From Minisyncoccota bacterium (GTDB taxonomy: Bacteria; Patescibacteriota; Minisyncoccia; UBA6257), in assembly GCA_041654015.1 (NCBI GenBank), contig JBAZEI010000001.1, positions 1 to 60,533 of the forward strand: 60,533 nt of DNA, written 5' to 3'. The position numbers and the translations under genes were made by a program. How positions within the stretch are numbered: position 1 is the stretch's first letter; every line of letters starts with the position of its first letter. Shown piece by piece: positions 3,930-59,091 of the stretch. The notes under the pieces are model-generated. The model searched no databases. It was not told the DNA's origin and was given only the letters and a program-made list of their open reading frames with translations.

Positions 3930-5150
3930 ATGAGTTCTCCTTTTTTAGCTATAGATTTAGGGTCGGCAAATATAAAAGCGTTAGTGGCTCAAATTGACGC
4001 CCAAGAAGGGTGGAAAATTATTTTGCCAATTTCCCGCGAATCCAAAGGAATTAAAGAAGGAGTGCCCAATAATTTAGAAGAAACCGCCGAAGAGCTCGAT
4101 GCTTTAATAGTTGAGATAGAAGCAATGCTTAAAAATGTTGTTTTTAGGGAGGCAATTGTGGGTATCGGAGGTTCCCATTTAGAAACTCGTCTTTCAAAAG
4201 GGGCCGCGGTTGTTAGTCGTCCTGATCAAGAAATAGGCGAAGATGATGTTAATAGAGCCAATAAGGCGGCAGAGGCTTTTGCTTTGCCTCCAAACAGGAG
4301 CTTAATTCAAACTGCCTTAAAAAGTTATGTTGTTGACGGGGTAGCAAAAGTAAAAGACCCAATAGGGATGAAAGGATTAAAGATAGAAACCGAGTGCCTT
4401 TTAATAGATGCTTTTACCCCTTTTATTCACTCTCTTGACCGTTTGGGAGAGATGATTAATATAAGATTTAATCCGAAATTTATTTTGCCTTATGCCGGGG
4501 CAGAAATAGCGCTTACGGCTCAGGATAAAGATTTAGGAGCAATGGCTTTGGATTTAGGCGCCGGCACCACCAGCTTTTGCATTTATGAAAATAATGAGAT
4601 TTTAGATTTGAAGGTTTTTCCAGGAGGAGGGAACGCAGTGACAAATGATATTGCTATCGGTTTAAAAACTAGTGTTAATATCGCCGAAAAAATTAAAATT
4701 AACGAGGGCATAGCTCTGAGAAATAAGGTCGCTAAAAATGAGAATATTGACTGGGATGCTTATTATGAAGAGGATAATGTTGGTGATAAAGTGAGCAAAA
4801 AATTTTTAGCCGAGATAATTGAGGCCCGTTTATCTGAAATTTTTGATTTAGTAGCCAAGAGATTAAAAGAAATTAATCCCTCTCTAAAATTACCTGGAGG
4901 CGTGGTTATATATGGAGGAGGAGCAAAAATGCCTTTTATTATTGATTTAGCAAAAGAGAGATTGAAGCTTCCGGTGCGGCCGGCAAAACCAGAAATAGAA
5001 TGGTATCAAGAGTCGCCAGACCTTAGTTTTATTCCATGCTTGGGGCTGCTGGCTTTGAAAGTTCAGGGCCAAAAAGAAGGTTTTCTGCCGCTGGAATCAG
5101 GGATATTGGCAAAAATAACTCGCTTTTTTAAAAATACTTTTTCTATTTAA
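3930..5150 (+). CDS. ftsA: Cell division protein FtsA
   Basis: Actin-fold blocks LAIDLGSANIKALV, GIGGSHL, LDLGAGTTSF, GGGNAVTNDIA and VIYGGGAKMP. Lies directly upstream of ftsZ. Confidence 0.85.
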   Translation: MSSPFLAIDLGSANIKALVAQIDAQEGWKIILPISRESKGIKEGVPNNLEETAEELDALIVEIEAMLKNVVFREAIVGIGGSHLETRLSKGAAVVSRPDQEIGEDDVNRANKAAEAFALPPNRSLIQTALKSYVVDGVAKVKDPIGMKGLKIETECLLIDAFTPFIHSLDRLGEMINIRFNPKFILPYAGAEIALTAQDKDLGAMALDLGAGTTSFCIYENNEILDLKVFPGGGNAVTNDIAIGLKTSVNIAEKIKINEGIALRNKVAKNENIDWDAYYEEDNVGDKVSKKFLAEIIEARLSEIFDLVAKRLKEINPSLKLPGGVVIYGGGAKMPFIIDLAKERLKLPVRPAKPEIEWYQESPDLSFIPCLGLLALKVQGQKEGFLPLESGILAKITRFFKNTFSI

Positions 5151-5159
5151 TTTAAAATT

Positions 5160-6416
5160 ATGAAAAAAAGAAGCAAGAAAAATAAAAAAAATAAAAAAGA
5201 AGAAGCTTTGAAAAAAGTGAAGCCTGAAAAAAAGACAAAACCGCGGAAGAAACAGAAACTAAAAGTGAAACCAAAGCGAAAAGAAAAAGGAGAAAAAGAA
5301 ATAAAAGAATCTTCTAACAGACGTATTTCTATAAAAATAGTGGGTGTTGGCGGAGCTGGCGGCAATGTAGTTACGAGAATGAAAGAAAAAAAGGTTGAGG
5401 GGGTTGATTTTATCGCTATCAATACAGATATTCAGGGCTTACATCATACAAAGGCCGATTTAAAAATTCAAATTGGAAAAGAATCTTGCAAAGGGTTGGG
5501 AGCGGGAATGGATCCATTGCGAGGGAAGGAAGCGGTAGAAGAGAATATTGAAGAAATCCATCAGGCAGTTCAGGGCGCTGAAATGATTTTTTTGGCTTGC
5601 GGCTTGGGCGGCGGAACAGGATCTGGCGCTTCGCCAATTGTCGCCAATTTAGCTAAACAGGCAGGCGCTTTGGTTGTCGGTGTGGTGACTAAACCATTTG
5701 CTTTTGAAGGAGAAAAAAGATTAGATATTGCTGATGAATCCTGGCAAAAACTTTTTAATGAAGTTGACGCTTTGGTGACGATTCCCAATGATAGAATCTT
5801 TAATATTATTAATGAAGAAACGCCAATTTTAGAGGCTTTTTCTAAAATTGATGATATTTTACGTCAGGGAGTGGAGGCAATAGTTAATTTAATTTCTTAT
5901 CCCGGCTTAATTAATTTGGATTTTGCCAATATTCGGACAATTCTGACAGAGGCAGGCAGCTCTTTATTGGGCATCGGTGTTTCTAAAGGACAGGATAGGG
6001 CTAAAAAAGCGGCAGAATTAGCAATTTCTTCGCCTCTTTTAGATATTTCAATTGAAGGAGCAAGGCGGGTTCTTTTTAATGTTGCTGGGACAAAAGATAT
6101 GTCTTTGGTAGAAATTCATAATGCTGCTCGGGTGATAACTCAATCAATAGCCAAAGACGCTCAAGTAATTTTTGGCGCCAGTTTTGATAATGATCTTCGT
6201 CAAGGAGAAATTAAAGTTACTGTTATTGCTGGTGGCTTTGGAGAAGAATTTCGCGAATTAAGGCCGGCATTGCCGTTGGAGATTAAAATCCCAATTAATA
6301 AGGGGACAAACGAAAAAGAAGGCGAGGAAGAAAAACAAAAGCAGGAAGAACAAAAAGAAGAATTTGAAATCCCGGCCTTTCTGCGTCGAAAAAACAAAAT
6401 AAACGGAAATTCATAA
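5160..6416 (+). CDS. ftsZ: Cell division GTPase FtsZ with a Lys-rich N-terminal extension
   Basis: GVGGAGGN, tubulin signature GLGGGTGSGASPIVA, E/K-rich linker, C-terminal peptide EEFEIPAFLRRK. Confidence 0.95.
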   Translation: MKKRSKKNKKNKKEEALKKVKPEKKTKPRKKQKLKVKPKRKEKGEKEIKESSNRRISIKIVGVGGAGGNVVTRMKEKKVEGVDFIAINTDIQGLHHTKADLKIQIGKESCKGLGAGMDPLRGKEAVEENIEEIHQAVQGAEMIFLACGLGGGTGSGASPIVANLAKQAGALVVGVVTKPFAFEGEKRLDIADESWQKLFNEVDALVTIPNDRIFNIINEETPILEAFSKIDDILRQGVEAIVNLISYPGLINLDFANIRTILTEAGSSLLGIGVSKGQDRAKKAAELAISSPLLDISIEGARRVLFNVAGTKDMSLVEIHNAARVITQSIAKDAQVIFGASFDNDLRQGEIKVTVIAGGFGEEFRELRPALPLEIKIPINKGTNEKEGEEEKQKQEEQKEEFEIPAFLRRKNKINGNS

Positions 6417-6446
6417 AATTCATTGTCCCCGCCAAAATTTTCTATG

Positions 6447-6545
6447 TGTCATTCTGAGCGTAGCCTCCGCCTTCGCTAAAGCTACGGTGGACAAGCCCGC
6501 CGTCGCCAGCGTCTGAAGCCGCAGGCTATGGCGGGCAAGGAAGAA
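6447..6545 (+). repeat. GC-rich two-hairpin element ('CGCTAAAGCT' family), copy 1
   Basis: tgtcattctgagcgtagcctccgccttcgctaaagctacggtggacaagcccgccgtcgccagcgtctgaagccgcaggctatggcgggcaagg. Near-identical copy at 45553..45642. Stems are CCGCC/GGTGG and GCCCGCC/GGCGGGC. Confidence 0.85.
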
Positions 6546-6626
6546 AAAAAAGCTGAAGAGAAAACAGATTTTGAGATTCCTGCTTTTCTTCGGAGAAAAA
6601 AGAAAAAAGAAAACGAAGAAGAATAA
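6528..6626 (+). other. 32-codon ORF encoding a second FtsZ-type C-terminal peptide (MAGKEEKKAEEKTDFEIPAFLRRKKKKENEEE)
   Basis: Own translation. Same reading frame as ftsZ but separated from it by in-frame stops. The ATG and first codons are supplied by the repeat element. Whether it is expressed is unknown. Confidence 0.3.
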
Positions 6627-6660
6627 TCTTTGTTTATATCCTCGTTTTTTAATTTATTAC

Positions 6661-17903: not shown

Positions 17904-18263
17904 ATGCAACAAATAATAACAGAAAGCTTAATGACGAATTTTTGGCTGCTTGCTTTATTCCTTACTTGGAGCTTAATTTGGAAAGGATTGGCATTGTGGA
18001 AAGCGGCAAGAAATGAACATAGATGGTGGTTTATCGCTTTGTTGATTATAAATACAGCAGGCCTTTTAGAAATAATTTATATTTTCTTTTTTAGTAAAAA
18101 GAAAGAGTTTGTAGAAAAGAAGCCCTCCGCCGCTTCCACCTCCGCTAAAGCTTCGGTGGATAAAAAAGCTATGGAGGATAAGCCCTCCTCTGCTTCCACC
18201 TCCGCTAAAGCTTCGGTGGATAAAAAAGCTATGGAGGACAAGGAAGAAACAATAAAAGAATAG
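17904..18263 (+). CDS. Small membrane protein (DUF5652-like) with a repeat-encoded C-terminal tail
   Basis: Two TM helices (LWKAARNEHRWWFIALLIINTAGLLEIIYIFFF). The tail contains two 20-aa repeats, PS.ASTSAKASVDKKAMEDK. Confidence 0.55.
   Translation: MQQIITESLMTNFWLLALFLTWSLIWKGLALWKAARNEHRWWFIALLIINTAGLLEIIYIFFFSKKKEFVEKKPSAASTSAKASVDKKAMEDKPSSASTSAKASVDKKAMEDKEETIKE
18121..18240 (+). repeat. Tandem 2 x 60-nt in-frame repeat related to the 'CGCTAAAGCT' hairpin family
   Basis: Units 18121..18180 and 18181..18240 differ at 3 positions. Each contains tccacctccgctaaagcttcggtgga...gctatggagga. Confidence 0.9.
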
Positions 18264-19578: not shown

Positions 19579-19606
19579 TTGACATTCATTTTAGATTTGC
19601 TATACT
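19579..19606 (+). promoter_or_regulatory. Sigma-70-like promoter TTGACA-16 nt-TATACT
   Basis: ttgacattcattttagatttgctatact. Confidence 0.65.
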
Positions 19607-19612
19607 CTCCTT

Positions 19613-19693
19613 GGTGTTATTTTTAAGCCGCAAGGCCTATAAATAACACCATTGCTGTCGTTTTTGGCTTGCCAAAGGCGGCAGCATTTTTTT
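19613..19693 (+). ncRNA. Candidate ~80-nt small RNA, copy 1
   Basis: Lies downstream of its own promoter. Hairpin 1 is GGUGUUAUUU..GCC-GCAA-GGC..AAAUAACACC (GNRA loop). Hairpin 2 is UGCUGUCG..UUGGC-UUG-GCCAA..CGGCAGCA followed by U7, which looks like an intrinsic terminator. No ORF. Confidence 0.45.
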
Positions 19694-19705
19694 ATATTAA
19701 AACAT

Positions 19706-19722
19706 AGGAGAACTGTTCTCCT
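19706..19722. repeat. 17-nt perfect palindrome AGGAGAAC-N-GTTCTCCT (3 copies in the window)
   Basis: Also at 45482..45498 and 45715..45731. GTGTT follows in all three copies. Confidence 0.9.
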
Positions 19723-19730
19723 GTGTTTTA

Positions 19731-24143: not shown

Positions 24144-24171
24144 TTGACATTCATTTTAGATTTGCTATACT
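24144..24171 (+). promoter_or_regulatory. Sigma-70-like promoter TTGACA-16 nt-TATACT (regenerated by the TSD)
   Basis: Identical to 19579..19606. Confidence 0.6.
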
Positions 24172-24177
24172 ACTTCT

Positions 24178-24258
24178 GGTGTTATTTCTAAGCCGCAAGG
24201 CCTATAAATAACACCATTGCTGTCGTTTTTGGCTTGCCAAAGGCGGCAGCATTTTTTT
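24178..24258 (+). ncRNA. Candidate ~80-nt small RNA, copy 2
   Basis: Same two hairpins and U-tract as 19613..19693. The differences cluster in the first ~10 nt. Confidence 0.45.
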
Positions 24259-24416
24259 ATTATTAATAATTATTAATGAGGATAATTAATGAGGTCGGAC
24301 CTCGTTAATTATTTTAGAAAAAGTTAATTTATATATTTTCTTATTTTTTCATATATTTTCTTTTTTCAATTGTTTCTGGTATGATATGAACGCGGAAAAT
24401 AAATTGTTTTAACTAA

Positions 24417-45402: not shown

Positions 45403-45770
45403 GGAAGAATCTCTCGTTTTCTTTTGTCATTCTGAGCGGAGCGAAGAATCCCTCGCGAATGCGAGAATCACACTAACAACAAGGAGAACAGTTCTCCTGT
45501 GTTCTATAATAAAATTTACGACGTCGGACGTCCCAAAATTCTTTGTCCTTTTGAGTGTAGCCTTCGCCTTCGCTAAAGCTACGCTGGACAAGCCCGCCTT
45601 CGCCAGCGCCTGAAGCCGCAGGCTATGGCGGGCAAGGAAGAATCTCTCGTTTTCTTCTGTCATTCTGAGCGAAGCGAAGAATCTCTCGCGAATGCGAGGA
45701 TCACATTAATAACAAGGAGAACAGTTCTCCTGTGTTTCATATCCCTCGCGAATGCGAGAAATTCACTTTG
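45403..45770. repeat. Composite array of GC-rich repeat modules (X1 - spacer/Y - X2 - partial X)
   Basis: X1 (45403..45503) and X2 (45636..45736) are ~101-nt near-identical direct repeats: ..tgtcattctgagcgRagcgaagaatc.ctcgcgaatgcgag..aggagaacagttctcctgtgtt. Y (45553..45642) matches 6460..6545. A third ctcgcgaatgcgag lies at 45745..45758. Confidence 0.9.
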
Positions 45771-50591: not shown

Positions 50592-51014
50592 ATGAAAACA
50601 AAACTGGAAATTTATACAGATGGAGGGGCAAGGAATAATCCGGGGCCGGCAGGCATCGGAGTCATTATAGGCGGTAAAGAATATGCTGAATATATAGGCG
50701 AGGCCACCAATAATGTTGCTGAGTATAAAGCGATTATTTTTGCTCTTAAAAAAGCGAAACAGCTTCTGGGAAAGTCAAAATTGAAGGACACAGAGGTGAT
50801 AATTAATGCAGATTCAGAATTAGTGATTAACCAACTTAACGGAAAATTCAAAATTTTAGAAAAAGATTTACAGCCTCTTTTTTTGGAAGTTTGGAATCTA
50901 AAATTTGATTTTCCAAATTTAAAATTTAATTATATTCCGAGGGAAAAGAATCAAAGGGCGGATTATCTAGTTAATTCTGCCATTGAGAAACGGCAAAATA
51001 CATTAAATATCTAA
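50592..51014 (+). CDS. rnhA: Ribonuclease HI family protein
   Basis: IYTDGGARNNPGPAGIG, NNVAEYKA, DSELVINQ, N.RAD. Confidence 0.8.
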   Translation: MKTKLEIYTDGGARNNPGPAGIGVIIGGKEYAEYIGEATNNVAEYKAIIFALKKAKQLLGKSKLKDTEVIINADSELVINQLNGKFKILEKDLQPLFLEVWNLKFDFPNLKFNYIPREKNQRADYLVNSAIEKRQNTLNI

Positions 51015-51054
51015 AAATATCTAAGAATATAATACTTCTTTCCTTATGTATATT

Positions 51055-51090
51055 AAAATCGTCCCCTCCATAGTTGGAGGGGACGATTTT
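51055..51090. terminator. Bidirectional terminator hairpin
   Basis: aaaaTCGTCCCCTCCA-tagt-TGGAGGGGACGAtttt, between convergent rnhA and RNase P RNA. Confidence 0.8.
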
Positions 51091-51102
51091 AATAAATTAA
51101 TT

Positions 51103-51762
51103 AACTGGTTAAACCTATAAGCCGAATTCTGTATCCAGCCCTTTTGAATAAATATAACGTTCTTTTACTTACAATATATTAACTTACTAATATAAATAAG
51201 TATTACTTGTTATATTCACTCAAAAGGGCTGGACGGCAGTCATTTATCTAGCCCTAATGTCGCCATCAGGGTCAAGCGGTTACTCTGCCAAAATTACTCG
51301 TAGCGAAGCAAGGTTATAATTTTGAGCATCCGCCATAGCTCAGTAAGCGACGGCGGACCCGCTTTTGCTAAAGCTCCAGCGGGCTCTCAATTTTATAACC
51401 GTTCGCCTAACTCACGGATAAAATTGGAGCACGAACCTTGCACCCAGTAAGGATTTAGCCGTTTCATCGTAGCCTTCGGCGAAGATCCACCATAGCTCGA
51501 AGAGCGAAGGTGGATAACCTTATAACTACGCTCGCCCTCCTTCGCATAAAGCTACGGAGGGCGTCTCGTGCCTTTCAGCACTCGACGTCTCTGTTCGCAC
51601 CTCTACCCATCTCTTTTTGTAAAAAGGGATGGGCGACAGCTGTTAGCTGCTACCTTTTTAACTCTGTTAAATAAAATTTAACAGAGTGGGAGTTCGGACT
51701 TTCCTCCCCGCTCTTTTAATTTAGGTTAAAAGGGCGGGGCGGCTGCCCAGTTCAACCAGCAG
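51103..51762 (-). ncRNA. rnpB: RNase P RNA (bacterial type A core) with large expansion segments, ~660 nt
   Basis: Minus strand carries GGAGGAAAGUCCGAAC (51707..51692), P8-like CAGC-UAAC-AGCUG, GUGCGAACAGAGA, AGAUAAAUGACUGCC and ACAGAAUUCGGCUUAU. P1 pairs CUGGUUGAAC (51759..51750) with GUUUAACCAG (51114..51105). Confidence 0.85.
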
Positions 51763-51905
51763 TTATTATACCTCTTTTTTTTGATTATTTCAAGAATTTT
51801 TAGTAGAATGAAATTGTTGGATTGTTCAGCAATCTTACGCTGGACTCGCCAACTGGCTAGTGAAAGGTCTATTAACTATCGTGAGAGGTTGCGCTTAAAA
51901 TTGAG

Positions 51906-53681
51906 ATGAGAGCGCTTGAGCGCTTTCAAAATATAAAAATGAATTTATTAAATAAGAAATTTTCATCACCAATTGCTATTTTTTCAGGAATACTAATTTT
52001 CTTAATAATAAGTTCATTTTTTTTTATACTCTTTAAAACAAACCAACTTCAGACGGCTAATAAACAAATCATTTCTTCATTAAAAGAAGAAAATTTTGAT
52101 GAAGCAATGAGTTTAATCAATGGGCTTGCTTTAAAAGAGCAAACTCAGAGCAATGATTTGTTGCAGAAATTTTCTTTTTTCCCCCTTCTTAAAGAAGAAA
52201 TTCAATTGAGCCAACATTTGATAGCTATTAAAGAAAATTTAGAAAAAATTAATAATGGATTTCTTTTTTTAGCGATGATTCAGCAAAGAGAAGACCCATT
52301 ATCTCCTTTAAATAATTTAAAAAATGATTTGAAGTATTTTGAAAAATATAATTTTTCTTGGTATGAAAATAAAAATTATCAATTGGAAAATTGGCTGTCT
52401 TTTTTTGGAGAAAAAGAAGAAAAAAATTATCTTGTTTTATTTCAAGACCCTGATATTCCAAGGCCAACAGGGGGTTTTATAGGCGCTTACGCTTTTTTGA
52501 CGTTTGATAAAGGAAAAATTACTTTTTTGGGAAACAATATTTTTTCTTTGGAAGAAGTGTTTTTAGATAAAATTATACCGCCTCTGCCGCTTCAGGATAT
52601 CAGCGATCGCTGGCTTTTTCATGATGCTAATTGGTTTTTTGATTATCCCTCCAGCGCCCAAAAAATTATGTCTTTCTACTCAAAGACAGGCAAAAAACCT
52701 GTTTTGGATGGTATTATTATTGCTAATATCAATGTAATGGAATCTGTTTTAGATATAATTGGCCCCCTAAAAATTAAAGATTATAATTTAACCATAGACC
52801 AAAACAATTTTGTTTCTTTCTATAAGAGTCAGGTTCAGGAATCAGCCAAACCAGCCCCTTTGCGTAAAGAAAAGGACTCTTTGCCGTTATTTTTTAAAGA
52901 ACTTCAGAAGGAAATGAAAGAATGTCCATTAGAGGTATTGGCTAATATTCCAGAGATTTTTGTTAGAAATTTTGAAAAAAAGGATTTACAGATTTATTTA
53001 GCAGATGATAATTTGGAATATTTCTTTGACTCCTTTGATTGGACGGGAAAAATTAAAGAAAGTAAAGATGATTATTTGGGAGTGGTTTTTAACCTTTTGA
53101 GAGATGATTTTACTGAAGACACGCGGGAAAAGAAAATTGAATTGAATACTGAATTTACTGCCAATGGTGAGATAATAAATCATTTGATTATCAGCGCCCC
53201 AAATTTTTCTTCAAAAGAGAAACAAACAGAGAACTATTTAAAAATTTATCTTCCGAGGGGGATAATTATAAAAGAAGCAGAAGGAAGTTTTCTTAAAAAT
53301 AATAATAACTCCTCTAAATTTGAAAATTTTTATAATAAGCTGGGCTACCAAAAAGATGGAGAATTGCTTTTGATAGAAAAAAACACAATTCGGGATGAAA
53401 AAAACAGGATTGAAATATACGAAGAGGGAGGAAAAACAGTTATTGGTTGTTGGGTTCAGCTATCTGTCAAGCCCTTTAGTTTAGTTTATAAATTGCCCGG
53501 CAGCTGGAACCAATTTTCTGATTGGGAATTAATTGTTCAAAAACAAAGTGGCCAAAAAATAAAGATTTCTTTTGAATTGATTATGCCCAAAGATATAAAG
53601 ATAACCCCTTCGCTTTTTCCTTTTAATCAATTTATTCCTTTGGAAAACGATTTAATCTTAAATTTTAAGAGAGAAAATTAG
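51906..53681 (+). CDS. DUF4012 domain membrane-anchored protein
   Basis: N-terminal TM helix. QDPDIPRPTGGFIGAYAFLTFDKGKI matches my recollection of the DUF4012 core. Confidence 0.6.
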   Translation: MRALERFQNIKMNLLNKKFSSPIAIFSGILIFLIISSFFFILFKTNQLQTANKQIISSLKEENFDEAMSLINGLALKEQTQSNDLLQKFSFFPLLKEEIQLSQHLIAIKENLEKINNGFLFLAMIQQREDPLSPLNNLKNDLKYFEKYNFSWYENKNYQLENWLSFFGEKEEKNYLVLFQDPDIPRPTGGFIGAYAFLTFDKGKITFLGNNIFSLEEVFLDKIIPPLPLQDISDRWLFHDANWFFDYPSSAQKIMSFYSKTGKKPVLDGIIIANINVMESVLDIIGPLKIKDYNLTIDQNNFVSFYKSQVQESAKPAPLRKEKDSLPLFFKELQKEMKECPLEVLANIPEIFVRNFEKKDLQIYLADDNLEYFFDSFDWTGKIKESKDDYLGVVFNLLRDDFTEDTREKKIELNTEFTANGEIINHLIISAPNFSSKEKQTENYLKIYLPRGIIIKEAEGSFLKNNNNSSKFENFYNKLGYQKDGELLLIEKNTIRDEKNRIEIYEEGGKTVIGCWVQLSVKPFSLVYKLPGSWNQFSDWELIVQKQSGQKIKISFELIMPKDIKITPSLFPFNQFIPLENDLILNFKREN

Positions 53682-57763: not shown

Positions 57764-57895
57764 TCCCCACACCAAACGAGTATTACTTGCGAGATTAGTA
57801 TAGTGGTAGTATATCACCTTCCCAAGGTGAGGGCGCCGGTTCGATTCCGGTATCTCGCTCAACTTAGAATTTAAAATATCGTTATGGTGTGGGGA
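57764..57895. mobile_element. TIR element E2 (TCCCCACACC...GGTGTGGGGA), TSD CAAG, whose cargo is the intact tRNA-Gly 'C'
   Basis: Arms 57764..57788 and 57860..57895. Shares CCAAACG / CGTTATGG and AACTTAGAA with the tuf-promoter element. Confidence 0.75.
57789..57859 (+). tRNA. tRNA-Gly (anticodon CCC), intact copy 'C'
   Basis: Hand-folded. Acceptor GCGAGAT/ATCTCGC, D arm GTAT-AGTGGTA-GTAT, anticodon arm TCACC-UUCCCAA-GGTGA, 4-nt variable loop, T arm GCCGG-TTCGATT-CCGGT. No encoded CCA. Confidence 0.88.
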
Positions 57896-58002
57896 CAAGG
57901 TTAAAGCGTGGGTTCGATTCCCATTGTCCGCTCAAAATATAAGTAATCCTTCTTATGGTGTGGGGGCAAGGTGAGGGCGCCGGTTCGATTCCGGTATCTC
58001 GC

Positions 58003-59091
58003 TCAGATAATTTTTCCGCCCCCTAAACATTTATCTTTTTGATAAAAAACAGCGAATTGGCCCGGGCAGGGGGCAAAAACCGGTTTTGAAAAAACAATTT
58101 TTAATTTTCTTTTTTCCGGAATTATAATAGCTGATGCAGGTTTTTGCTGGTAGCGAATACTCACTTGGGCTTTAAAAGGTTTTGATAGTTTTTTTCCAGA
58201 AATAAAGTGATGAGGAAAAACAAAGATTTCTTTTTTAAAGAGATCTTTTTTATTTTTACTCACTAAAAGAGCGTTTTTCTTTTTGTCAAAGCCGACAACA
58301 AAATAAGGGCCGCCGGAAAGTTTGATCCCTTTTCTTTGGCCAATGGTAAAAAAATGCAATCCTTGGTGTTGGGATAAAATATTTTTTTGAGTGTCAATTA
58401 TTAAACCTTGTTTTTTACCAATTTTTTGTTCCAAAAAAGGGCAAAGAGACTGGCCGGCAATAAAACAAAAATCCTTACTTTCTTCTATTTTGCTAAAGAA
58501 TTTCAGCCCCTGTTTTTTTGCTATTTGATAAATTTCTTTTTTAGAGTAATCACCGAGAGGAAAAATGATATGTTTGAGCCATTTTTGAGGCAAAAAACAG
58601 AGATTATAAGTTTGATCTTTATTTTTATCTTCGGCTTTTAATAACTCATACTGCTTTGTTTTAGAATTAAATTTCAGTCTTGCATAGTGGCCAGTCGCAA
58701 TATATTCAATCTTATGTTTTTTTGCCCAAGCGATTAATTGTTTAAACTTGAAATTAGGATTGCAAATAACGCAAGGATTGGGGGTTCTTAAATTTTTCCA
58801 TTCGTTAATAAAATACCCAACAACTTGTTTTTTAAAATCTTTTTTCGCGTCCACAATATGATGAGGGATACCTAACTTTTTACAAACCTTAGCTGCTACT
58901 TCTAGAGATTGTTTTTTTACAAGACGGGCATTTGCTTTTGAAAAATTGGTTTTATCCTCCCAAATAGGCAATTCTAAAGAAAGGCCGATCGGCTGCCAGC
59001 CTTCTTGTTTTAATAGTATTAAAGCGGCCGAGGAATCTACTCCTCCGGACATACCAACAACAATTTTTTGGCCCTTAATATTTTTTGACAT
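58003..59091 (-). CDS. mnmA: tRNA-specific 2-thiouridylase MnmA
   Basis: PP-loop VGMSGGVDSS, PNPCVICN, ATGHYAR. Confidence 0.9.
   Translation of the reverse strand: MSKNIKGQKIVVGMSGGVDSSAALILLKQEGWQPIGLSLELPIWEDKTNFSKANARLVKKQSLEVAAKVCKKLGIPHHIVDAKKDFKKQVVGYFINEWKNLRTPNPCVICNPNFKFKQLIAWAKKHKIEYIATGHYARLKFNSKTKQYELLKAEDKNKDQTYNLCFLPQKWLKHIIFPLGDYSKKEIYQIAKKQGLKFFSKIEESKDFCFIAGQSLCPFLEQKIGKKQGLIIDTQKNILSQHQGLHFFTIGQRKGIKLSGGPYFVVGFDKKKNALLVSKNKKDLFKKEIFVFPHHFISGKKLSKPFKAQVSIRYQQKPASAIIIPEKRKLKIVFSKPVFAPCPGQFAVFYQKDKCLGGGKII

Follow-up and report, generated by a model that had tools for sequence, protein, structure and literature searches.

RNase P RNA is among the few universal ribozymes; its bacterial forms are usually 330–420 nucleotides (nt) long and structurally conservative. 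STRR repeats were reportedly found by Vioque in 1997 (Nucleic Acids Res 25:3471, cited in PMC2858038) inside rnpB of heterocyst-forming cyanobacteria. These cyanobacterial elements are tandem heptanucleotide repeats confined to P12, where they lengthen a peripheral helix while function is kept. Another case is that of the intervening sequences (IVS) of 23S rRNA, sporadic extended stem-loops at the tips of conserved helices, which are cut out by RNase III and leave the rRNA fragmented. There are thus precedents for an essential structured RNA gene that harbours a repeat family. Here we describe the rnpB gene of a Minisyncoccota bacterium, contained in a stretch of 60,533 nt (contig JBAZEI010000001.1 of assembly GCA_041654015.1, positions 1 to 60,533; hereafter the window). 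We consider it probable that this is a single, syntenic and functional rnpB of the candidate phyla radiation (CPR), in which the ends of four peripheral helices were extended or replaced by self-folding modules after the lineage split. The likeness to STRRs is that a genome-wide repeat family lies inside the gene for RNase P RNA; the difference is that discrete hairpin modules and composites are present here at P3, P13/14, P16/17 and P19. An STRR-type expansion was rejected, as Tandem Repeats Finder detected no array in 51102-51758 and P12 is short. The likeness to IVSs lies in sporadic stem-loops at the helix tips of an essential structured RNA, the host RNA here being that of RNase P.

Class-A RNase P RNAs of the CPR have been described which fall below Rfam thresholds, need manual refolding and carry large helix extensions (e.g. 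P15) or lack helices (Lui, Nielsen & Arkin 2021, PMC8172020), and the UGG motif is often absent from the diverged ones (PMC8172020). As such CPR genes are already on record, size and divergence alone are not new. The extensions of that study were not linked to repeats, to the same element at different helices or to dispersed or coding copies, whereas those reported here can be traced to a hairpin family and to a composite of ~140 nt. Rickettsia palindromic elements (RPE) are small palindromes of a reduced genome which lie in frame in unrelated housekeeping genes and add a peptide (PMC10969869). Our hairpin likewise adds PSFAKATKGK-type peptides to the product of pgk in locus L159 and to a DUF5652 protein of the window, but RPEs are ~150 bp long and Rickettsia-specific while the present elements measure ~27 nt, or 60–140 nt as composites, and are found in a ribozyme gene; the two are likened by behaviour and not by sequence. 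A further parallel is with REP, REPIN and MITE elements, which are short dispersed hairpin repeats: the inverted doublets of hairpins A and B described below are REPIN-like (PMC3733652, PMC3116915, PMC10969869), and the composite resembles a MITE in its complementary terminal segments (s1/s4). Unlike these families, our copies can also lie within genes, rnpB is so far the sole location in which the composite has been observed, and no high copy number was seen. The GTAG/CGTC end tag of REP/REPIN sequences was rejected for this family, as GTAG is internal to the hairpin (GUAGC); a GTAG precedes hairpin 1 of a 99-nt repeat (6461-6464) and none is found at the rnpB copies. What is new is that the expansions of rnpB are linked to a dispersed family of 27-nt hairpins with further members inserted in frame in proteins, together with the presence of a ~140-nt composite at four helices and the finding of an allele-level indel and a swapped P12-P14 segment.

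An initial annotation of the window had placed all type-A core signatures of RNase P RNA on the minus strand, with about 660 nt from P1 to P1. Both points were borne out. The gene measures 657 nt, its gene order is that of rnpB in relatives, and a permissive Rfam scan aligned positions 1-367 of the 367 in RF00010 to 51758..51102 of the minus strand (65.1 bits, E=2.7e-19). This end-to-end alignment, which is the covariance-model check proposed at that stage, recovered the full model with a complete catalytic core and covers both P4 strands as well as P1-P3, P15 and P18; GAGGAAAGUCCG and ACAGAAUUCGGCUUA were both found. Judged from its sequence, the core (P1-P5, P8-P12, P15, P18 and both P4 strands) appears intact. 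Every string quoted in the annotation was also located where it had been placed. At the gathering threshold, an Rfam scan of the whole window reported two tRNAs and not the RNase P RNA, because about 224 nt of insertions hold the score under the 100-bit cutoff and leave a default scan blind to this gene. The -10 hexamer of the promoter is separated from the first P1 base by 6 nt (AACTGC), and a terminator-like hairpin, which was missing from the output of a simple terminator scan, lies just 3' of rnpB, between it and the convergent RNase H gene. A group I or II intron or another known ribozyme as insert was rejected, since a permissive Rfam scan of 50900-52000 returned only RF00010 and chance-level matches and the inserts are no longer than 140 nt.

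The host belongs to the CPR and is Paceibacteria-like. Nearest to it among the genomes are a 'Candidatus Paceibacterota' metagenome-assembled genome (MAG), L001, whose phosphoglycerate kinase (PGK) is 80% identical, and a second CPR MAG, L002 (PGK 70%). The order pgk-DHH-RNase H-rnpB(-)-DUF4012-murJ is common to the window, L001 and L002. Because Rfam places the rnpB genes of L001 (433 nt, 107.8 bits with RF00010) and L002 (424 nt, 97.1 bits) at this same syntenic site, the window gene is their orthologue and not a stray copy; identity to L001 is 82% over shared columns. The gene had been called roughly twice the usual size, and oversized it is, although a factor of 1.5–1.7 (about 1.6 in comparison with its relatives) is closer. 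For a wider comparison, JGI metagenome contigs were scanned with the adjacent RNase H protein, which gave 80 loci, and rnpB could be parsed with seven conserved anchors in 37 loci. The distance from P4 to P4 has a median of 334 nt and a range of 276–551 nt in these syntenic relatives and is 589 nt in the window, the largest value parsed. Segment lengths in the window exceed the medians for P12-14 (119 versus 78 nt), P15-17 (158 versus 30 nt) and P2'/P19 (109 versus 29 nt), and of the parsed genes it was only that of the window in which all three arms were expanded at once. The closest relatives by RNase H (83–91% identical) carry a compact rnpB, as was found when the suggested comparison with relatives was made: the inserts are absent from rnpB of L001, L002 and L083-L090, and P19 is short in L084, whose RNase H is 91% identical. 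A 918-nt 'rnpB' in L092-L096 was rejected, as its anchor pair proved false and lay in coding sequence. Locus L133 contains an unparsed rnpB of ~789 nt (4634-5422), longer than that of the window, in which P13 is of the module type and P16/17 bears a 190-nt insert akin to one in L158; this gene was absent from the Rfam matches at E<=1e-6.

Alignment with L001 and L002 assigned 224 nt in all to the window only, and every added block is situated at the outer end of a peripheral helix (Table 1). The three blocks to which the excess had been ascribed do hold it, together with 8 nt in P3. Each inserted block is more stably folded than dinucleotide shuffles (z=-3.7 for P13/P14, -5.8 for P16/17, -12.0 for P19 and -4.5 for P3), with 0 of 200 shuffles as stable as the block in each case. 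The block between P12 and P15 had been read as module hairpins, which its match to the family upholds, with the refinement that two hairpins fill the native P13 and P14 slots in a variant common to locus L132. P13 is in its normal slot yet has the sequence of a hairpin module, and the short GUAA-capped P14 of the nearest relatives is replaced by a module-bearing arm without their GNRA loop (these helices were named by hand). The two ~27-nt hairpins recognized in the P16/17 block were confirmed, but the unit is larger, a composite of four hairpins and ~140 nt. The remaining block, described as AT-rich and P19-like, does belong to P19, a helix that is itself native: its stem CCGCCCUUUUGA/UCAAAAGGGCGG is native to the clade, with a lower part of 26 base pairs without interruption, and only the AT-rich 66-nt tip is species-specific. 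This tip lies outside the hairpin-module family; BLAST detected no further copy of the extension in the window, and its likeness to the P19 extensions of L121, L112 and L126 is limited to the shared stem base, so that no family could be assigned.

Two assemblies of this species made independently support the sequence of the gene. One of them, L163 (Logan run SRR20753439), matches the window at 513 of 520 positions over 51429-51948, its rnpB part (51429-51758) being identical including P13/P14, and L081 matches 50959-51147 exactly. Both contigs stop at the border of an element, L163 at 51429 (P16/17 composite) and L081 at 51147 (P19 extension), as would be expected of inverted repeats in assemblies from short reads.

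Table 1. Coordinates of rnpB, its helices and signals, the sequence confined to the window and the dispersed repeats
Feature	Position	Strand	Basis
rnpB, class-A RNase P RNA gene, 657 nt	51102..51758	minus	Rfam RF00010 alignment and synteny
Promoter, TTGAAA-17 nt-TATAAT	51765..51793	minus	11/12 consensus matches; top-scoring site of the region
Terminator-like hairpin, AAAAUCGUCCCCUCC-AACUA-UGGAGGGGACGAUUUU, followed by U residues	51055..51090		Read from the sequence
P3, stem lengthened by 7 bp through 8-nt insert CCCUUUUA (51727-51734)	51706..51739	minus	Alignment; fold z=-4.5
P4 5' strand, (G)AGGAAAGUCCGAAC	51691..51705	minus	Same in window, L001 and L002; aligned to model P4
Hairpin directly 3' of P5, P5.1-like position (name inferred)	51661..51687	minus	Native here; homologue is a 40-nt indel in L095
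P12, short 26-nt hairpin with GAAA cap	51562..51587	minus	Fold; four compensatory pairs versus L132
P13, hairpin module A1, CCCUCC-GUAGCUUUAUGCGAA-GGAGGG	51535..51561	minus	Model R1, 37.9 bits, E=6.6e-6
P14 arm CGUAG...CUACG, 63 nt, bearing module B1 (51487-51513)	51468..51530	minus	Alignment and fold; R1, 25 bits, E=0.0037
Four-hairpin composite at tip of P16/17, ~140 nt	51288..51427	minus	Homology to L095 insert; profile; fold z=-5.8
P18, normal size	51252..51271	minus	Model alignment, fold and parsing
P19, native stem base with distal AT-rich 66-nt extension (~51146-51211)	51133..51234	minus	Alignment; z=-12
P4 3' strand, ACAGAAUUCGGCUUAU	51117..51132	minus	Model alignment and alignment with relatives
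Window-only sequence in P3, 8 nt	51727-51734		Alignment with L001/L002
Window-only sequence in P14, 21 + 17 nt	51499-51519, 51469-51485		Alignment with L001/L002
Window-only sequence in P16/17, 112 nt	51287-51398		Alignment with L001/L002
Window-only sequence in P19, 66 nt	51146-51211		Alignment with L001/L002
B1 hairpin, CCACCATAGCTCGAAGAGCGAAGGTGG	51487-51513		String located as quoted in the initial annotation
A1 hairpin, CCCTCCTTCGCATAAAGCTACGGAGGG	51535-51561		String located as quoted
B2 hairpin, CCGCCATAGCTCAGTAAGCGACGGCGG	51330-51356		String located as quoted
A2 hairpin, CCCGCTTTTGCTAAAGCTCCAGCGGG	51358-51383		String located as quoted
99-nt dispersed repeat after ftsZ (hairpin 1, 6467-6490; hairpin 2, 6497-6534)	6447..6545	plus	Repeat comparison, R1
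Second copy of 99-nt repeat, after map, 93% identical	45544..45642	plus	Repeat comparison, R1
Two tandem 60-nt units within DUF5652 open reading frame 17904-18263	18120..18239	plus	Repeat comparison, translation, R1

The four GC-rich hairpins of rnpB, each of 26–27 nt, fit a family consensus of CCNCC-TYCGC-loop-GCTWY-GGNGG. They had been proposed to belong with repeats located after ftsZ, after map and in the open reading frame (ORF) at 17904, and this was supported by motif excess, arm identity and a covariance model. The motif TAAAGCTWCGGNGG has 5 matches in the window against 0.14 expected and GCTATGGNGG has 6 against 0.21; both were chosen post hoc and occur only in the repeats and rnpB. 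The arms CCGCCGTCGC..GCTATGGCGG are exact in 6497-6534 and in B2 (10+10 nt, 20/20; 0.00 expected), and in plain gapped alignment A1 matches 6467-6490 at 22 of 24 positions, a score reached by 0 of 100 shuffles. When the three insert blocks were compared with the window by BLAST, only matches of 10–12 nt were obtained, at chance level. As plain alignment supported A1 alone, family membership had to be assessed with gap-tolerant patterns and a covariance model. The latter, R1, was trained solely on copies outside rnpB (three from the window and two from an IMG/VR contig) and run across the whole window with filters off. Directly behind the training sequences, and interspersed with two hairpin-2 repeat units, it ranked the four rnpB hairpins: A1 (51534-51562, E=6.6e-6), A2 (51357-51384, E=8.4e-4), B1 (51485-51515, E=3.7e-3) and B2 (51328-51358, E=0.063). 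Unrelated background began at ~14 bits (E ~0.8). Each rnpB pair is inverted, A being antisense and B sense relative to R1.

Outside the window, R1 applied to 408 kb of related CPR loci matched rnpB of L094-L096, L146/L150, L133 and L132 and one site in L159. In 1.4 Mb of mostly non-CPR control loci its matches were confined to one unclassified MAG and were absent from the Pelagibacter, Prochlorococcus and Clostridia controls. The L159 site (500-545) lies inside pgk, where a single 27-nt hairpin is in frame (...SHRGRP-SFAKATKGK-PRG...), so that the added SFAKATKGK follows the conserved S-H-x-G-R-P motif; the PGK of the window is without it. In each of the two units in the DUF5652 ORF of the window, the loop of hairpin 2 encloses hairpin 1, and the units are translated in frame as KPSAASTSAKASVDKKAMED x2. 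An intergenic hairpin pair in an IMG/VR contig of 57% GC (L172, 3153-3237) has a first unit identical to the P13 module of the window at 27 of 27 positions, and we therefore conclude, from sequence comparison, that the family extends well past this AT-rich CPR genome. The other seven of the eight IMG/VR pattern matches were rejected as chance, being mostly within apparent coding sequence, and L172 alone is a real hairpin pair. A search of PLSDB plasmids with the 99-nt repeat found none.

The surroundings of the 99-nt repeats are themselves repetitive. Within 6300-6640 the conserved C-terminal peptide of FtsZ is encoded twice in the same frame, as EFEIPAFLRRK before the stop (6416) and as TDFEIPAFLRRKKKK... 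beyond the repeat; insertion of the repeat seems to have duplicated the 3' end of ftsZ or to have carried along a replacement for it. A second repeat family, TGTCATTCTGAGCGRAGCGAAGAATC...CGCGAATGCGAG...GGAGAACAGTTCTCC, occurs at 45403-45508, 45636-45741 and 19696-19728 and is interleaved with the 99-nt repeat after map, where an intergenic region of ~400 nt consists almost entirely of nested repeats.

The composite at P16/17 is arranged as s1 CCAAUUUUAU, hairpin H1, s2, module A2, module B2, s3, hairpin H4 and s4 UAAUUUUGG, and contains the inverted repeat noted in the initial annotation (arms 51310-51326 and 51386-51400). Over ~131 nt it aligns with an insert of L095/L096 at a score of 82 versus 19.7 +/- 3.2 for shuffles (z=19). 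That insert occupies another helix, the first hairpin after P5 (P5.1-like; L093-L096). The window composite also aligns with the P19 inserts of L155 and L125, in which the two middle hairpins are exchanged for unrelated ones. A profile built from the four composites (nhmmer) retrieved one more copy of full length (E=7e-21), which makes up P3 in L146/L150. The composite is thus found at four helices, namely P3 (L146/L150), P5.1-like (L093-L096), P16/17 (window) and P19 (L155 and L125). In the RNAalifold prediction the composite forms four hairpins side by side, and 21 of the 45 consensus pairs show compensatory changes. A cruciform pairing (s1/s4 with s2/s3) is possible as well, and for the window sequence this is the fold of minimum energy. 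A search of GenBank phages with the composite found none.

Comparison of lineages indicates that such modules differ in place between rnpB genes. One AT-rich hairpin of 105 nt is present in both P16/17 and P19 of L121 (3447-3553 and 3604-3715, 93% identical) and in P19 only of L112, and another element is common to L158 and L133, in which it sits at different helices (z=10.4). The rnpB genes of L095 and L096, which come from related samples, are identical in all segments save two. One difference is a clean indel of a 40-nt hairpin, whose homologue in L001 is the P5.1-like hairpin (z=12.4), and the other is a P12-P14 segment that is wholly different (55 of 113 positions identical). L091 has the P12-P14 segment of L096 but a plain hairpin at the site of the L096 composite, and this empty site differs from the filled one by replacement of the whole hairpin with no obvious target duplication. 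These three genes were compared segment by segment, as MAFFT misaligned their 5' ends. The P13/P14 architecture of the window is common to L132 (z=24.7) and absent from closer relatives; compensatory changes relative to L132 in four P12 pairs and one at the base of P14 indicate that P12 and the P14 base are kept. Taken jointly, these comparisons of sequence would point to cassette exchange or repeated gain. The claim that hairpins had colonized the gene at tolerant helix positions is accordingly in good standing, given nearest relatives without inserts, elements at other helices elsewhere, the 40-nt indel and the in-frame copy in pgk.

Read by eye, the loop of P13 and the loop or internal loop of P14 appear complementary in the window, L132, L146, L131 and L095, with sequences that differ between lineages, the pairs including AUCCC/GGGAU and UAUCCUU/AAGGAUA as well as CUUUAU/AUAAGG in the window and CCUUGU/AUAAGG in L132. 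Such a pairing may represent a clade-specific loop-loop contact in place of the usual docking of the L14 tetraloop.

We also entertained, as a doubtful proposition, that the ~140-nt composite is a dedicated 'helix-tip cassette' of structured RNA genes, a self-closing domain that relocates among peripheral rnpB helices (P3, the P5.1-like hairpin, P16/17 and P19) by replacement of whole hairpins without target duplication. If true, this would point to an unrecognized recombinational or RNA-mediated mechanism, or to a function, for example the docking of a partner specific to the CPR, and rnpB in this clade would be a mosaic of exchangeable cassettes, including the P12-P14 segment of the specificity domain.

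These data establish the identity of the gene, the position and lineage specificity of its inserts, the hairpin family and the homologues at other helices and in coding DNA; how the expansion came about can be set out conditionally. Once the lineage had split from its nearest sampled relatives, four peripheral helices would have been lengthened or replaced at their distal ends. Two inverted pairs of the ~27-nt hairpin would have been acquired, one now forming P13 and the tip of P14 and the other capping the P16/17 composite, along with the AT-rich 66-nt extension of P19 and the 8-nt extension of the P3 stem. The modules presumably enter or replace hairpin tips, and recombinational cassette replacement would fit the clean replacements better than cut-and-paste transposition. 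The primary transcript probably includes them as folded portions of the RNA, and they would mostly be tolerated passengers and not necessary parts. In the three large inserts, 14 G-U pairs form when the rnpB sense is folded versus 2 on the complement, and the sense strand is more stable by 4–13 kcal/mol; this asymmetry in predicted folds would fit helices maintained in a transcript. Because the modules close on themselves at tips facing away from the active site, the core fold would be preserved and the gene is predicted to be still working.

Several observations weigh against this probable reading of an intact rnpB extended by mobile modules. The gene falls short of the RF00010 gathering threshold (65.1 versus 100 bits), its P2 has one C-A mismatch, and the GUAA tetraloop of P14, kept in the nearest relatives, has been lost. 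In plain gapped alignment B1, A2 and B2 were not significant, and B2 by itself was marginal with R1 (E=0.063). The P13/P14 variant is found in distant L132 and not in the closest lineages, which requires recombination or repeated gain. No target-site duplication, transposase or RAYT was identified, the genes of the window not having been scanned for them. Finally, the window and ~410 kb of related loci (~470 kb) yielded no full-length composite other than those in rnpB, which is awkward for a simple mobile element spread over the genome; flanks sampled on this scale are too small to call the composite rnpB-specific.

Long perfect helices are classic substrates of RNase III, and the 26 uninterrupted pairs of P19, the long near-perfect P16/17 duplex and the sporadic occurrence of inserts among close relatives, as for rRNA IVSs, raise the possibility that the inserts are transcribed and then excised, so that the RNase P RNA consists of two to four fragments held together through base pairing and tertiary contacts. 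We regard this as rather unlikely: the 27-nt GC-rich hairpins are too short for RNase III, and the enrichment of G-U pairs on the sense strand and the covariation indicate selection on the RNA fold but would be expected whether inserts are excised or retained. It is also unlikely, if anything slightly more so, that the hairpins and the composite are, in place of selfish passengers, selected functional RNA domains, for example docking a CPR-specific protein or substituting for lost tertiary contacts, which were recruited repeatedly to whichever peripheral helix was free. Such recruitment would account for the fact that each full-length composite found belongs to an rnpB gene, the composites spanning four or more separate lineages and four different helices, and for the extensive covariation of the composite. 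It would likewise suit the P13/P14 variant, conserved with L132 along with a possible pairing of L13 to the P14 internal loop (CUUUAU/AUAAGG and CCUUGU/AUAAGG), and the P13 27-mer identical in the unrelated contig of 57% GC. The closest relatives, however, manage without any of these elements, L155 and L125 carry unrelated hairpins in place of the two in the middle of the composite, and the 27-nt hairpin is also found in coding sequences and after genes, where a role in RNase P is impossible; moreover, the sampled flanks are small, and absence outside rnpB is weak evidence.

The resemblance to dispersed repeats might instead reflect coincidental convergence of GC-rich stem-loops in an AT-rich genome, with helices that grew by local slippage or duplication. 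The failure of three of the four modules to reach significance in plain alignment would be consistent with this, as would a P3 extension that resembles local stem growth and a P19 extension without a relative elsewhere in the window. Nevertheless, R1, which was trained without rnpB, puts the four rnpB hairpins as its top new matches, the identities are extensive (20/20 for the B2 arms, 22/24 for A1 and 27/27 for L172) and the Pelagibacter, Prochlorococcus and Clostridia controls are without matches, and we judge convergence very improbable overall: it is largely refuted for the P13/P14 and P16/17 blocks and possible for P3 and P19. Least credible of all, to the point of being almost negligible, is an assembly artefact, with repeats misjoined into rnpB, or a dead pseudogene. 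The ending of Logan contigs at element borders, the low Rfam score and the mismatch in P2 would speak for one or the other, but the core segments that flank the inserts are correctly ordered with clean helix extensions, an independent sample repeats 330 nt including P13/P14 exactly, similar expansions occur in other lineages, and the copy is syntenic with its promoter and terminator intact.

Genes neighbouring rnpB include those for DUF4012 and DUF5652 proteins, murJ, pgk and RNase H (the Pfam scan took in 8 ORFs of the 60-kb window); an exact-protein look-up of the DUF4012 neighbour gave no match, and cluster members were used in its place. Elsewhere in the window, two 3'-partial tRNA copies (57882-57934 and 57953-58005) come after tRNA-Gly(CCC) at 57789-57860, and the latter copy is identical to the last 39 nt of this tRNA. 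Neither copy was called as a tRNA by ARAGORN or Rfam, and they look like attachment-site scars of integrated elements. A 117-nt unit present twice with 95% identity (19579-19695 and 24144-24260) contains a promoter-like TTGACA...TATACT site and two hairpins, one of them terminator-like and with a T run, and the two units are a candidate pair of small RNA genes.

The inserts of rnpB fragment assemblies and will hide this gene in many MAGs. The present case explains why rnpB of these genomes is missed by standard covariance-model annotation and why short-read assemblies break there. We show that rnpB of the CPR is a hot spot for modular hairpin elements, with the same elements at different helices according to lineage, and that a hairpin of the same family is tolerated in frame within essential protein genes such as pgk. 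As a natural form of 'insertion mutagenesis', these genes inform on which of the ribozyme's helix tips can be dispensed with. Finally, rnpB alleles that differ by a single cassette provide a tractable system for studying the movement of tiny hairpin repeats in reduced genomes.

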